From the NCBI GenBank assembly GCA_965227275.1, contig CBDDFU010000001.1:3378764-3442763 (forward strand): a stretch of DNA of 64,000 nt, read 5' to 3'. The translations under genes were made by a program, and so were the position numbers. Shown here piece by piece: positions 25,975 through 31,155 of this stretch. The first letter of the stretch is position 1. Each line of letters begins with the position of its first letter. The notes below the pieces were generated by a model. It was not told where the DNA came from. It did not search any database and saw only the letters and a program-made list of their open reading frames with translations. Source of the stretch: Pirellulales bacterium. GTDB taxonomy: Bacteria > Planctomycetota > Planctomycetia > Pirellulales > JAEUIK01.

Positions 25975-26619
25975 GTGGCGACTTCCGTAGATCTCAACGC
26001 GAATCAGTGGCAGGTCGTCGAACGGTGGCAGGAATACGGTGCGGAGGCGCGTGCCAACCTATTGAGAGTGGTTGGGGTCGGAACGTTCTACATCATCGAA
26101 CTTCTCAACCACTACGGGCTCAGCCTCGGGGTCCTGGAGTTACCGCCGGTCGAAGGTGTTGATCGACCCTTTCATCTTGCGGTTACTTCATTAGCAGCAA
26201 TCTGGGCTGCGTTAGCCGTTGCCATCCATCTCTGTTTGCGTCAGAGGATTTTTCCCTGGTACTTGAAGTTCGTTTCGACGGGATGCGACCTGATATTGCT
26301 GACGTCGATTCTGATGGTCGCCGATGGCCCCAGTAGCCCTTTAATTGTTGGCTACCTGTTGGTAATCACTCTGGCGGCACTGCGATTGAGCTTACCGCTG
26401 ATCTGGTTTTCAACCCTGGGGGCGATGACGGGCTACTTGGTGCTGTGTGGCTATGCACGCTGGTTCACCGATCGTGCCATTGACGTTCCCCGGTATTACC
26501 AATTCATTTTCTTGTTGGCACTTGCCTTATCCGGCGTGGCCTTGGGGCAATTGATTCGTCGCTTGCCTCAAATTGCCGCGGATTATGCGACACGAATTGA
26601 GGGGCACTCTGACGATTAG
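25975..26619 (+). CDS. Hypothetical polytopic membrane protein
   Basis: 214-aa ORF with GTG start and about five predicted TM helices. No catalytic motif recognised. Confidence 0.5.
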   Translation: MATSVDLNANQWQVVERWQEYGAEARANLLRVVGVGTFYIIELLNHYGLSLGVLELPPVEGVDRPFHLAVTSLAAIWAALAVAIHLCLRQRIFPWYLKFVSTGCDLILLTSILMVADGPSSPLIVGYLLVITLAALRLSLPLIWFSTLGAMTGYLVLCGYARWFTDRAIDVPRYYQFIFLLALALSGVALGQLIRRLPQIAADYATRIEGHSDD

Positions 26620-26679: not shown

Positions 26680-27171
26680 ATGAACGATTCGCCGACCGAA
26701 ATTGCTGCCGGAAGATATCGCTGCCCAACCTGCGGCGCGATGAACCAGACTTCGGCGCACCCGTCCAACGTGCTGAAGTGCTGGCTCTGCACACATTCCT
26801 TCACCCGCGACGGCACCAAAGTCGCCGACAACGCGGTTGCTGAACCGAGGAACCCTCTTGAAAAGCAGGGCGTGACGTTCGGGCTCACGACGTTGATGTT
26901 GATCGTCACGATGGCCGCCATCGGGTTCGGGATCTTTCGTAGTGCACCCGGCTTGGGGATTCTGTTCTTCGTCCTTCTTACTCCGGCACTCGTACGAGCC
27001 CAGATCATCACCATGCGGCAACGAGAGCTGGGGGTGGCCCAGTCGGTGATCGAAGTATTTGCGACATTTGTCGTCTCACTCGGGGTGACCATGTTTGTGT
27101 TGGGTCTCGTGCTAATTGCTGGTGTGATCGCGTTCGTCGGGACGTGCTTCTATGCGTTTTCTCAATTCTGA
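26680..27171 (+). CDS. Hypothetical zinc-ribbon membrane protein
   Basis: 163-aa ORF. N-terminal CPTCG...(17 aa)...CWLC zinc-ribbon pattern followed by three hydrophobic helices. Confidence 0.5.
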   Translation: MNDSPTEIAAGRYRCPTCGAMNQTSAHPSNVLKCWLCTHSFTRDGTKVADNAVAEPRNPLEKQGVTFGLTTLMLIVTMAAIGFGIFRSAPGLGILFFVLLTPALVRAQIITMRQRELGVAQSVIEVFATFVVSLGVTMFVLGLVLIAGVIAFVGTCFYAFSQF

Positions 27172-27200: not shown

Positions 27201-28718
27201 ATGACGCTGCGTGACTATACGTTTATTGGCACCACGGAAAGTCTCTGTCCCGAGTGCTTGTCGCTTGTTCCCGCGAAAGTCATCACCCGGGGAAAGCGTG
27301 TTTACTTTCGCAAGCGCTGTCCGACGCACGGCGTTCGGGAAGATTTCGTCTGCTCCGACGTAGCCCATTACAACCGCCACGAGTTCAGCGTGCCGGGTCG
27401 CAAGTCGGAAGTGTATGGAACCGAGCCGAAGAAAGGTTGCCCCTTCGATTGCGGGTTGTGCACCGAACACGAGCAGCATACCTGTGTGGGGCTTGTCGAG
27501 CTGACGAGTTCGTGCAACCTGAGTTGCCCGATGTGCTACGCCTCCAGCGGGCCCGGGGGGGAACATCTCAGCTTCGAGCAGTGCACGGCGGCCATCGATC
27601 GTTTGGTGGAGGCCGAGGGTCGTGCGGAAGTCTTGCAGCTATCCGGAGGCGAACCAACCTTGCACCCGCAGTTTGCGGAGGTGTTCGAGTACGCATGTCG
27701 TCAGCCCATCGACATCGTGATGATCAATACCAACGGCATTCGGCTAGCCAATGATTCGGCCCTGCTCGATTTGCTGGCCGCGCAGCGACATCGCATCGAG
27801 ATCTACTTCCAGTTCGATGGCTTTCGTGAAACGACCAGCCGACAATTGCGTGGCGAATCGCTCGTCGACACGAAACTTCGGGCCATCGAAAAACTGGGAG
27901 AGCGTCGACTAAGAACCACCCTGGTCACAACGTTGCAGGGCGATCTCAACCTGGACGAGGTGGGTGCGATTACGCAATTTGCCCTCGAACGACCCTGGAT
28001 CACCGGGGTGAGTTTCCAGCCGGCAACCTATTCGGGACGTTGGGTTACGCCCGAAAGCCTGGAACAACGGGTCACTTTTCCCGACGTGATCGAGGCCCTC
28101 GTTCAGCAATGCGGCGGCTTGTTCGAGCCGGCCGATTTTATGCCAGTGCCGTGTGCGCATCCCAACTGCCATACGTTGAGTTACGTGTATCGCGGTACGG
28201 AACAACCCACGCCAGTCTCGCGATTCATCAACGCTGCCGAGCACCTCGACCTGCTGGCCAACGGAATCACGTTCAATCGAACCCGTGCCCGGGAGTTGGT
28301 TGAAACGTACTTGGGTCGTCAGGGATGCTGTGCTGGGGGAAGTTGCCTTCCAGAGCAGTCCCAATCCGCCGATACGGTGCTGCCGGTGATCACGACGGCG
28401 AACCCCGCCAGCGGAACGCTGGATCGTCAGTCGGAGGAGTTCTTCAGCCGTGCGTTGGCCGAACAACTCGATCCCGAGGACGTGTTTCGAGTCACGATTA
28501 CTTCATTTCTCGACGCCTACAACTTCGATGTCCAGCGTGTGATGAAATGCTGCATTCATCATGTATTGCCCAGCGGTCATATCATTCCGTTTTGTGCCTA
28601 CAACGTGTTGTATCGCGAAGGTCACGTCCCGTTACCCCCGTTGCAACAAGAATTGGGCCAGGCGAATGGTCGGCCGTTGGGGGACCGTAAGCCACTACTG
28701 ACCGCGGGCAACGAGTGA
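27201..28718 (+). CDS. Radical SAM enzyme with multiple Cys clusters, Tes / GDGT-MAS (MJ0619)-like architecture
   Basis: 505 aa from ATG 27201. N-terminal CPEC...CPTH rubredoxin-like site, GCPFDCGLCTEHEQHTC, canonical CNLSCPMC (CX3CX2C), SGGEPTL. C-terminal Cys/His cluster CAHPNCH ... CCIHHVLPSGHIIPFCAYN. Confidence 0.85.
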   Translation: MTLRDYTFIGTTESLCPECLSLVPAKVITRGKRVYFRKRCPTHGVREDFVCSDVAHYNRHEFSVPGRKSEVYGTEPKKGCPFDCGLCTEHEQHTCVGLVELTSSCNLSCPMCYASSGPGGEHLSFEQCTAAIDRLVEAEGRAEVLQLSGGEPTLHPQFAEVFEYACRQPIDIVMINTNGIRLANDSALLDLLAAQRHRIEIYFQFDGFRETTSRQLRGESLVDTKLRAIEKLGERRLRTTLVTTLQGDLNLDEVGAITQFALERPWITGVSFQPATYSGRWVTPESLEQRVTFPDVIEALVQQCGGLFEPADFMPVPCAHPNCHTLSYVYRGTEQPTPVSRFINAAEHLDLLANGITFNRTRARELVETYLGRQGCCAGGSCLPEQSQSADTVLPVITTANPASGTLDRQSEEFFSRALAEQLDPEDVFRVTITSFLDAYNFDVQRVMKCCIHHVLPSGHIIPFCAYNVLYREGHVPLPPLQQELGQANGRPLGDRKPLLTAGNE

Positions 28719-29440
28719 TGATCGAAGTGAATTGGCAATATGCGGGCGTGATGTTGCTGGCGATGATCGTCGGCATCACCATCAGCCGCTGGACGCAACA
28801 GCCGCTGGGGCTCTCCGTAACCGAGCGAATCGGCATCGCCCTGGGGGCCTTTTGCGGAGCCATGATCGGAGCCAAGCTGCCGTTTGCCTTGGCGAACTGG
28901 CAGGACTTTCTTGAAGGTGGGCTGTGGTACGCTTCCGGGAAGACCATCGTATTGGGGTTAGTCGGCGGGTACCTGGGTGTGGAAGTTACCAAGTGGTCGC
29001 TCGATATCCACGTGAAGACTGGCGATAGTTTCGTAGTCCCTGTGGCCGCGGCCATTGCCGTTGGGCGTCTTGGCTGTTTCGTGGGCGGTTGTTGCTATGG
29101 CACGCCGACCTCGCTGCCCTGGGGAATTGCCTTCGCCGACGGGATCGCCCGCCACCCCACGCAACTTTACGAGGCAATGTTTCATGCCACCGCTGCCATG
29201 GTTCTGTACGTGATGTGGCGGAGAAAGATGTTCCCGGGTCAGCTCATCAAGCTCTATATCCTGGCGTATCTGGTCTATCGCTTTGCCACCGAATGGATTC
29301 GCCCCGAGCCGCACATGTGGTTCGGCCTTACCGGCTATCAGTGGGCAGCCGCTGTTTGCATTCCCGTCTTCGTGTGGTTGTGGATCCGCGACGCCAAAGC
29401 CATGGCACCAGCACATTGGGAAGTCACGAGCAGCATGTGA
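28715..29440 (+). CDS. Lgt (prolipoprotein diacylglyceryl transferase) family protein, non-canonical subfamily
   Basis: 241-aa polytopic ORF. GRLGCFVGGCCYGTPTSLPWGIAF and RHPTQLYEA align with the Lgt signature region. The start (GTG 28715 / ATG 28718) overlaps the radical SAM stop codon (28716-28718). Confidence 0.8.
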   Translation: MMIEVNWQYAGVMLLAMIVGITISRWTQQPLGLSVTERIGIALGAFCGAMIGAKLPFALANWQDFLEGGLWYASGKTIVLGLVGGYLGVEVTKWSLDIHVKTGDSFVVPVAAAIAVGRLGCFVGGCCYGTPTSLPWGIAFADGIARHPTQLYEAMFHATAAMVLYVMWRRKMFPGQLIKLYILAYLVYRFATEWIRPEPHMWFGLTGYQWAAAVCIPVFVWLWIRDAKAMAPAHWEVTSSM

Positions 29441-29535: not shown

Positions 29536-29566
29536 AAAAAAAGACGGGCTGGAGATCCTCCAGCCC
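29536..29566 (-). terminator. Rho-independent terminator (minus strand)
   Basis: Perfect 9-bp stem GGGCTGGAG-(3-nt loop)-CTCCAGCCC at 29546-29566. On the minus strand it is followed by GTC and T7 (A-run 29536-29542 on the plus strand). Confidence 0.6.
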
Positions 29567-29757
29567 GATATGCGGTTTCGCCGGAGGTCCTCCGACACCA
29601 AGTATTCTGACACAAAATTAACGCAGGTCAAGCCGCGGATCGGCCAGATCGCCGGGAGCGGGCATTCGGAGCTCAATATGGCTAATACGACCGTCCAAGT
29701 CCCAAAAACACGGCATTCTTTCAAGTAAAGCCGTAACGAATTCGCCGGTCGTGCGCC

Positions 29758-30009: not shown

Positions 30010-31155
30010 TCAAGCTGGAGGACGAGAGCTTGGAACGATGATGGGTTTCTGACCGGCCAGAGTGATTCGCTGCCGAAGGGCACGGTCGACCATTAGAAAC
30101 TCGCCGAGATTTTCGGTGGTAAGCATACCCACGATCTGACCATCTTTTACCACCGGCAGTGTTCGACCCGGGGCGGATTGAAGTCGCGGAATGACCGGCT
30201 CCAACATCTCGGACGCATCCGCGGTCTTGATATCGGTCCGCATCACCGTGGCGACTCGGGCGTATTGTCCCTGCTCGGCCAGGGCCTTCACTATGTCGGC
30301 CCGCGTGAGAACGCCCACGAATTTTCCCTCATCGATGACCGGGAAATCGTGTTGAAACCCTGCCAACACAAAATTGACGGCGCGACTTAGTTCGTCATCC
30401 GGCGCGAGTACTTGGAAGTCGGTCACCATCACGCGGCTCACGGGTATCCCGGAGACTGCCGAACGGATCCGAACCGAGGAAGCTTCCTGGGCGGCCCCCA
30501 TCCAAACGAACAACGCAATGAAGACGAGGAAGGGATTAAACCAGATCAGCCCCATCAACCCGAACAGCACGGCCATGGCTTGCCCGACATTCGCGGCGAT
30601 GTTTGTTGCTCGTACGTAGTCCAGTTTCGATGCCAGTACGGCTCGCAACACGCGACCGCCGTCCATGGGGAATGCCGGCAGCATATTGAACAGCACCAGC
30701 ATCACATTGATCGAGATGAGCTGAAACAGGAACATCGCCACCGAGCTGTCGAGAATATTCCATTGCATGGAATACGACAGGACCGCCAATCCGATTAGTG
30801 CAATCGAGAGTAGAACGGCCAACACCACGTTTACGGCAGGGCCTGCCACGGCGATAAGGAATTCCTGCCACGGTTGCCTTGGCATGCGTTCCAAGCGGGC
30901 CACGCCGCCAAACAACAGGAGCGTGATGTCCTGGGTGCGTATGCCGAATCGCCTCGCGGTGAGCGCATGGCCCAACTCGTGCAAGACAATGATCCCAAAC
31001 AGGACCAAAATCAATGCCACGAGTTGCAGCACGCCACCGACGCTCTTCTGGTCGGCAAAGCCAAGCATCACGACCAGGGCGATGAGTACAAGGAACGAGA
31101 CATTGACATAGATGCCAATGCCCGAGATCGTGCCGATCTTCCAAGACCATCGCAT
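30010..31155 (-). CDS. Site-2 protease family (peptidase M50) with tandem CBS domains
   Basis: 381-aa ORF. HELGHALTARRFG (HExxH), NMLPAFPMDGGRVL (NxxPxxxxDG), multiple TM helices, and a C-terminal CBS pair (VMVTDFQVL..., VMRTDIKTA...). Confidence 0.85.
   Translation of the reverse strand: MRWSWKIGTISGIGIYVNVSFLVLIALVVMLGFADQKSVGGVLQLVALILVLFGIIVLHELGHALTARRFGIRTQDITLLLFGGVARLERMPRQPWQEFLIAVAGPAVNVVLAVLLSIALIGLAVLSYSMQWNILDSSVAMFLFQLISINVMLVLFNMLPAFPMDGGRVLRAVLASKLDYVRATNIAANVGQAMAVLFGLMGLIWFNPFLVFIALFVWMGAAQEASSVRIRSAVSGIPVSRVMVTDFQVLAPDDELSRAVNFVLAGFQHDFPVIDEGKFVGVLTRADIVKALAEQGQYARVATVMRTDIKTADASEMLEPVIPRLQSAPGRTLPVVKDGQIVGMLTTENLGEFLMVDRALRQRITLAGQKPIIVPSSRPPA

Follow-up and report, generated by a model that had tools for sequence, protein, structure and literature searches.

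The closest described relatives of two neighboring genes in a 64,000-nucleotide stretch of the genome of a Pirellulales bacterium (contig CBDDFU010000001.1; hereafter, the window) are, on one side, the prolipoprotein diacylglyceryl transferase (Lgt) of Escherichia coli (PDB 5AZB/5AZC; PF01790; TIGR00544) and, on the other, two radical S-adenosylmethionine (SAM) enzymes: the tetraether synthase Tes, or GDGT-MAS (MJ0619; 7TOL/7TOM; NF045702), and TrsS (NF045646), which was reportedly named by Haft and Tolstoy in 2025 (mSystems). In E. coli Lgt, residues D129, R143, G154, Y235, R239, E243, and R246 are intolerant to mutation (Mao et al., PMC4728403), and the periplasmic head and the N-terminal arm set the specificity for the protein substrate (PMC13251419). 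In the window, a gene for an Lgt-like protein directly follows a gene for a Tes/TrsS-like radical SAM enzyme, and it is very probable that this Lgt-like gene is part of a dedicated Lgt-like/radical SAM lipid module, and not a housekeeping lgt. The module has three core parts, which are the Lgt-like protein, the Tes/TrsS-like radical SAM enzyme, and a small membrane protein bearing a Cys (orf163 in the window), with a further membrane protein, orf214, joining them in this clade. At the window locus, the two enzyme genes are adjacent, the Lgt-like protein falls into the clade defined by this linkage, and beside them lies the gene for a small membrane protein, whose conserved Cys sits at the predicted end of a helix.

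The evidence for the module comes, in the first place, from the linkage of its genes. Confirmed relatives of the Lgt-like protein are encoded in 400 species genomes, of which the best 80, all from Planctomycetota (Pirellulales, Gemmataceae, Isosphaeraceae, and Planctomycetaceae), provide the counts given here for the closest loci. The radical SAM gene is present in 72 of these 80, nearly always directly upstream of the Lgt-like gene and at a median distance of 25 nt, with the two genes overlapping or nearly abutting in approximately 28 loci. Departures from this order are also found. Two loci, L031 and L076, have orf214 and orf163 followed immediately by the Lgt-like gene, with no intervening radical SAM gene; that orf163 keeps its place next to the Lgt-like gene there speaks for the module. 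In L067 and L055, orf214 is preceded by the radical SAM gene, and L075 has a more distant radical SAM gene on the downstream side of the Lgt-like one.

An even sample of Planctomycetota gives the same picture. Out of 201 genomes searched, 34 were followed up, and proteins reaching at least 98 bits on a purpose-built profile were counted as Lgt-like. A Tes/TrsS-like radical SAM gene adjoins the Lgt-like gene in 22 of the 23 genomes with such a score, while it is absent from all seven genomes of the same class that lack the paralog (7/7). Both gene orders, with the radical SAM gene either before or after the Lgt-like gene, are seen, each with overlapping reading frames. Outside Planctomycetota, an LGT gene followed by a Zn_ribbon_HMPTM/Radical_SAM gene is found in four of four contexts (Candidatus Eisenbacteria, Symbiobacteriaceae, and the taxonomically unassigned contigs L106 and L107). 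In the first two and in L107, these genes overlap by 8 nt and are followed by a gene for a protein of approximately 100 residues; in L106, the two genes are separated by a gap of 255 nt, and no small gene was called downstream. This conservation in the closest loci, in the even sample, and in other phyla bears out the coupling to a Tes-type radical SAM enzyme that a first-pass annotation of the window had proposed, and with it the expectation that the adjacency would recur in other genomes.

The phylogeny follows the linkage. In a maximum-likelihood tree of 54 Lgt-family proteins, one branch with 100/100 support separates all 31 radical-SAM-linked Lgt-like proteins from all 23 unlinked Lgts, the latter comprising E. 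coli Lgt, the second Lgt of the window's own genome (described below), 20 other Planctomycetota Lgts, and the protein from G178, which is the single exception to the adjacency in the even sample. The Lgt-like protein belongs, therefore, to a separate clade of the Lgt family, defined by its linkage to a Tes/TrsS-like radical SAM gene. A sister family within the linked proteins, referred to here as H-type, has more than 7700 members at E ≤ 1e-10.

As for the gene itself, direct reading confirms the overlap first reported for it: the radical SAM gene starts with the ATG at 27201 and ends in AAC GAG TGA, and its stop codon (28716–28718) is overlapped by both the GTG (28715–28717) and the ATG (28718–28720) of the Lgt-like gene, with 4 nt shared between both genes. 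The predicted product of 241 residues, which carries the RHPTQLYEA and PWGIAF signatures also noted in the first pass, matches the Pfam LGT family (PF01790; gathering threshold of 24.9 bits) along model positions 9–239 of 240, and its more than 2800 homologues at E ≤ 1e-5 place the reading frame far beyond chance. The relatives of this protein are annotated everywhere as 'prolipoprotein diacylglyceryl transferase'. Its AlphaFold2 (AF2) model (pLDDT 86, pTM 0.83) has seven transmembrane (TM) helices, and the single significant fold match found with Foldseek in the PDB is E. coli Lgt (5AZB; E = 1.2e-5, probability 1.00, TMq 0.58), so that, by its predicted structure, the protein is a member of the Lgt superfamily with the Lgt fold. 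The charges of its loops, under the positive-inside rule, predict the same orientation as that of E. coli Lgt and, therefore, an active site placed at the periplasmic leaflet. However, it scores well below the NCBIfam equivalog cut-offs for Lgt (48.2 versus 118.9 for TIGR00544, and 93.8 versus 334 for NF000778). At 241 residues compared to the 291 of E. coli Lgt, it lacks the N-terminal periplasmic arm, and its periplasmic head, between TM4 and TM5, is cut to approximately 25 residues. These are the parts that are shortened, and not the N-terminal WYG-containing helix that had been reported as missing: TM1 is present in the model (helix 7–27), and its Tyr9 aligns with Tyr26 of E. coli Lgt.

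Residue equivalences were taken from MAFFT alignments that include the E. coli sequence, with 31 linked proteins in one of them and 27 linked rows in another. The signature block GRLGCFVGGCCYG, which had been placed one base too early (29062–29100), provides the equivalents of R143 (R118), N146 (C121), E151 (C126), and G154 (G129), and R118, C121, and G129 are found in 31/31 linked proteins. D104, equivalent to D129, is equally invariant (31/31), as are R146, P148, and E153 of the RHPTQLYE motif (RHP(S/T)QLYE when E. coli Lgt is included), where H147 is kept in 27/31. In YLVYRFATEWIR, Y185 (Y235) and R189 (R239) are present in 31/31, while E193 (E243) is Glu or Asp, and R196 (R246) is Arg or Lys, in 27/27 rows. 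All the mutation-intolerant residues of the E. coli enzyme have, thus, an equivalent in the Lgt-like protein, and, as judged from the alignments, the phosphatidylglycerol-binding and catalytic Arg/Tyr/Glu network is fully kept, so the chemistry of this protein is probably Lgt-like rather than different.

The Cys-rich nature of the GRLGCFVGGCCYG block had been taken as the mark of a paralog with another donor or acceptor. Nevertheless, the block says nothing about a changed substrate, since the second Lgt of the same genome shares it in the form GRLGCFLNGCCYG (both following GRLGCF..GCCYG), distant Lgts with N146C and E151C are on record (PMC13251419), and the closest linked sister group, the H-type clade, has lost C126/C127. 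With this argument and that of the missing helix gone, and with the catalytic network kept, the proposal of a different donor or acceptor loses its basis. Another protein for comparison is MSMEG_5408, the second Lgt homologue of Mycolicibacterium smegmatis, which is reported to carry Y26H and N146C and is presumed to have low Lgt activity (PMC13251419). These two reported residues are exactly those that characterize the H-type clade of linked proteins (His at the first position in 11/27 linked rows and Cys at the second in 27/27), while the window protein keeps a Tyr at the position of Y26.

What does distinguish the linked clade is a set of residues found on another face of the protein. K76, I78, V89, E90, K93, T102, G103, F106, P109, and P197 are conserved in the linked clade alone, and most of them map, according to the positive-inside rule, to the cytoplasmic end of TM3 and the TM3–TM4 loop. 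The core of this set is the VE..K...TGD.F..P motif, whose residues are each present in at least 85% of the 31 linked proteins and in at most 20% of the 23 unlinked Lgts, with the exception of the shared D104. From its position, this face is likely a docking surface for a cytoplasmic partner, the radical SAM enzyme. Compared to E. coli Lgt, the window protein combines this motif with three replacements (H103 to Val, N146 to Cys, and E151 to Cys).

The genome also encodes a second Lgt, 2 Mb away, confirming that the window protein is a paralog and not the sole Lgt of the organism. This protein of 425 residues reaches a TIGR00544 score of 118.9, exactly at the cut-off. Its periplasmic head, which connects TM4 to TM5, is interrupted by a PDZ domain (PF00595, 37 bits), and the protein also has a long N-terminal extension; its orthologues in related genomes are also long (356–444 residues). 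Unlike the window protein, it has no radical SAM neighbor, and it clusters in the tree with the unlinked Lgts of its relatives. Orthologues of the PDZ-bearing Lgt occur in relatives without the module, and close relatives that have retained it lack the Lgt-like gene. The PDZ-bearing Lgt is, thus, likely the housekeeping enzyme of this genome, in which a single LspA gene is found.

The radical SAM partner is the only Tes/TrsS-like protein of the genome. It aligns with TrsS over its full length (model positions 2–436 of 441) with 342.7 bits, under the cut-off of 490, and the same holds for all 15 Lgt-linked radical SAM proteins that were scored (230–345 bits), which makes them a sister family of TrsS and not TrsS proper. 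Against the Tes model it obtains 290.6 bits (cut-off of 450), with the best-aligned stretch limited to model positions 2–320 of 486, and it matches GDGT-MAS (7TOL, E = 5.7e-70) in residues 12–323 and 430–474. With Tes/GDGT-MAS it shares the N-terminal Zn ribbon, the auxiliary-cluster Cys motif, the CxxxCxxC core, and a C-terminal CC.H...PFC motif, while its middle part (residues ~324–430) is unaligned. Another difference is that this bacterial enzyme has an Lgt-like partner, and archaeal Tes has not been reported to have one. Across 27 linked radical SAM proteins, the invariant Cys and His residues form a Zn-ribbon/rubredoxin site, a CxxxCxxC...C auxiliary motif, and the radical SAM CxxxCxxC motif, with three further Cys. 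One of these three, the last Cys of CCAGGSC, belongs to the middle part and aligns with an in-frame TGA (U385) in the orthologue of G197, which is, for this reason, probably a selenoprotein with selenocysteine (Sec) at this position.

The third core part, the small membrane protein, had been overlooked in the first pass, which recognized the paired genes. The AF2 model of orf163 (pLDDT 76) consists of a beta ribbon (13–42) and helices 67–88, 90–117, and 123–162. A homologue is detectable by BLAST in 44 of the 59 loci with enough upstream DNA, and in at least eight of the other 15 loci, a small membrane protein of similar appearance is encoded there, in each case with a Cys close to where a membrane helix ends; some of these proteins have, in addition, a PGLG motif or a Zn ribbon. 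In an alignment of 28 orf163 sequences, with a mean identity of 26%, Cys156 is the sole invariant column, and this position is a Cys in 47 of 50 homologues. In the model, it lies six residues from the end of a last helix of 40 residues. This helix is preceded by a positively charged, Arg-rich loop, and in 42 of the 50 homologues the chain goes on after the Cys for approximately 48 residues, through a short polar loop and a fourth TM helix to a tail rich in Arg; together, these features place Cys156 at the periplasmic end of an in-to-out helix. By analogy, a lipobox Cys occupies this predicted location in the signal peptide of a lipoprotein, and the active site of Lgt lies at the same depth. 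The window orf163 stops seven residues past Cys156, and it is a naturally short variant, given that 42 of the 50 homologues continue for ~48 residues. A rule placing the Cys within the last 16 residues was tried and rejected, as it holds for 10 of 50 homologues, most of which have a fourth TM helix after the Cys.

In the sister clade, on the other hand, a small gene is found downstream of the radical SAM gene. Its product carries the motif ...G(L/I)TQLLYV(I)P...(I/V)TFLLNAAC(F/W)G and sometimes an N-terminal Zn ribbon, and its Cys motif is located at the same place as in orf163. A search for further conserved neighbors in the sister-clade loci returned nothing beyond shadow open reading frames (ORFs) and this small downstream gene. 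One sister-clade locus holds a second NAAC-type small membrane protein (L089:10078–10488), 1.7 kb downstream of the first.

Table 1. Position of the genes, motifs, and single residues discussed in the text (window coordinates unless a locus or genome is named).
Feature	Position	Strand	Remark
orf214, 5-TM membrane protein	25975..26619	+	Accessory first cassette gene of the clade; upstream homologue in 45 of the 80 closest loci
orf163, cytoplasmic Zn ribbon (CPTCG...CWLC) and three membrane helices (predicted)	26680..27171	+	Candidate acceptor or partner
Cys156 of orf163, predicted outer (periplasmic) end of last helix	27145..27147	+	Invariant column
Tes/TrsS-like multi-cluster radical SAM enzyme	27201..28718	+	PF23545 Zn_ribbon_HMPTM and PF04055
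Radical SAM enzyme, invariant Cys (last of CCAGGSC)	28344..28346	+	Cys in 27/27 linked proteins
Lgt-like 7-TM transferase gene	28715..29440	+	PF01790 (98.4 bits); AF2 model; tree
Motif V89-E90-x2-K93...T102-G103-D104-x-F106-x2-P109	28979..29041	+	Clade-specific; TM3 cytoplasmic end, TM3–TM4 loop, TM4 start
Lgt signature block GRLGCFVGGCCYG	29063..29101	+	E. coli G142–G154
RHPTQLYE motif	29150..29173	+	E. coli R195–E202
YLVYRFATEWIR	29267..29302	+	Equivalents of E. coli Y235, R239, E243, R246
10-bp GC-rich perfect hairpin	29545..29567	.	Called as minus-strand terminator
PDZ-bearing Lgt, 425 aa	G000:C1:5369109-5370113 = L001:1444-2721	minus	Housekeeping-type
Radical SAM orthologue with in-frame TGA	L084:6104-7510 (genome G197)	minus	...CCAPGESU...

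Upstream of orf163, orf214 has the invariant residues E24, R31, Y39, D105, and R137 and an ADGPxSPL motif. It is a stand-alone protein with an N-terminal RWQEYxGExRANLLR segment and no kinase domain attached. Its homologues give weak Pfam hits to membrane domains of sensor kinases (6TM_PilS in 8/24 and DUF4118 in 5/24), while the window protein itself has no sequence match in Pfam, NCBIfam, or the PDB. At the other end of the cassette, the GC-rich hairpin begins approximately 105 nt past the stop codon of the Lgt-like gene and is flanked by A-runs and T-runs, and it is the probable end of the unit. It sits between the convergent genes for the Lgt-like protein and an M50/CBS protease (30010–31155, minus strand), and could terminate both of them.

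The reading that we favor, at slightly less than even confidence and with a chemistry that we infer, is that of a dedicated three-part system for lipid–protein modification. The Lgt-like enzyme, at the periplasmic leaflet, would take a diacylglyceryl group from a glycerophospholipid (probably phosphatidylglycerol) and transfer it to Cys156 of orf163 with the formation of a thioether. The cytoplasmic radical SAM enzyme would then dock on the transferase, at the clade-specific face on its cytoplasmic side, and/or on orf163, at the Zn ribbon, and apply radical chemistry of the Tes type to the tail ends of the lipid, with C–H activation through the invariant Cys/Sec or an auxiliary cluster. The C–H activation would be followed by C–C or C–S coupling, and the tethered lipid would be joined in this way to another tail or to a lipid of the inner leaflet. 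The Cys of the small protein may be the lipid acceptor, at nearly even chances. A full protein–lipid conjugation system, in which a glycerolipid is held on the invariant Cys and its tails are welded to each other or to an inner-leaflet lipid to give a protein-anchored, possibly membrane-spanning lipid, is a rather unlikely form of the same proposal.

Several points weigh against this reading. The main difficulty is one of topology: with an Lgt active site on the periplasmic side and a radical SAM enzyme in the cytoplasm, both can act on one and the same molecule only if its tails are reached across the bilayer. Every mechanistic step after the binding of the glycerophospholipid is, moreover, a deduction. 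Residues Y26, H103, and N146 are absolutely required in E. coli Lgt, and although the first is kept as Y9, the other two are replaced. These changes count little against activity, because both positions vary in distant Lgts, that of the same genome included. With regard to the small proteins, the putative lipobox has a residue other than the canonical Leu at −3 (...VGTC, ...NAAC), and a few loci, seen in a crude ORF scan and in the sister clade, show no small Cys protein. In addition, a hidden Markov model of the NAAC-type proteins fails to detect the orf163 family, so a like architecture is proposed for both groups and homology is not claimed.

No published description of a module of an Lgt-like protein, a radical SAM enzyme, and a Cys protein was found in a literature search whose coverage did not extend to the work of Haft and Tolstoy (2025) on TrsS, in line with the first-pass annotation, which could not match the pathway to a described one. 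Full-text searches pairing diacylglyceryl transferase with tetraether or radical SAM returned nothing relevant. Tes homologues of Planctomycetes have been listed as possible makers of branched glycerol dialkyl glycerol tetraethers (brGDGTs) or of bridged or membrane-spanning lipids, with no mention of an Lgt partner (PMC8941075; 10.1101/2023.10.20.563219; PMC13459092), and a large survey of Lgt notes second copies and N146C variants and not the linkage to radical SAM genes (PMC13251419).

Among the alternatives, the one that survives best, and which we nonetheless consider unlikely, is a pathway acting on free lipids. Here, the Lgt-like protein would bind or hand over a glycerophospholipid, or pass its diacylglyceryl group on to an acceptor that is a small molecule or a lipid. 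The Tes-like enzyme would couple acyl tails into a membrane-spanning or otherwise cross-linked glycerolipid, which is how the literature pictures bacterial Tes homologues, as producers of brGDGTs or diabolic acid, with the small proteins acting as mere scaffolds or regulators. GDGT-MAS, to which the radical SAM enzyme is truly homologous, acts on free lipids, the Planctomycetes relatives of this enzyme have been proposed as synthases of brGDGTs or membrane-spanning lipids (PMC8941075; 10.1101/2023.10.20.563219), and the small protein is not detected in every locus. However, published work has archaeal Tes and bacterial Mss functioning without an Lgt-like partner, and the match to Tes is restricted to the first ~320 and the ~45 C-terminal residues, with a different middle region on the substrate side. 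Such a pathway also leaves unexplained why a member of a family whose known chemistry is limited to transfer onto a protein Cys accompanies a protein in which a Cys, set at the appropriate depth in the membrane, is the sole invariant residue.

A second alternative, which we regard as improbable, is that the Lgt-like protein has no transferase activity and serves as an adaptor that anchors the radical SAM enzyme and feeds it lipid tails. The loss of His103 and Asn146, both essential in E. coli, the reduced head and arm, the concentration of clade-specific conservation on the cytoplasmic face, and the presumed low activity of MSMEG_5408 (PMC13251419) would all fit this role. On the contrary, the catalytic network, from D104 to R196, is kept across the three sub-clades and the sampled phyla, which argues for selection on catalysis, and the N146C and H103 variants are also found in sole-copy Lgts and in the genome's own PDZ-bearing enzyme. 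The last alternative, a plain second housekeeping Lgt beside an unrelated radical SAM gene, agrees with the annotation given to these proteins but is barely credible, being already contradicted by a linkage that recurs across phyla, whichever gene comes first, and that matches clade membership without exception, as well as by scores far under every NCBIfam Lgt equivalog cut-off and by the absence of the gene from close relatives that keep the PDZ-bearing Lgt.

Bacterial homologues of tetraether synthase serve geochemistry and ecology as markers of brGDGT producers, and we know of no function shown for any of them. A large set of these homologues, comprising thousands of Planctomycetota proteins, is linked at the gene level to a separate clade of Lgt and to miniproteins with a Cys, and the same arrangement is found in the examples checked from Eisenbacteria and Symbiobacteriaceae. 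This linkage offers a testable alternative, in which a protein-attached lipid is subjected to radical chemistry on its tails, and warns against reading these genes as brGDGT markers. If the proposal of protein–lipid conjugation is true, many bacterial Tes homologues counted as candidate brGDGT synthases would have another job. For lipoprotein biology, the linked clade marks out a second functional branch of the Lgt family, where the catalytic core is kept and the head domain that selects ordinary lipoproteins is lost. The module is apparently undescribed and widespread, a variant built from familiar kinds of enzymes.

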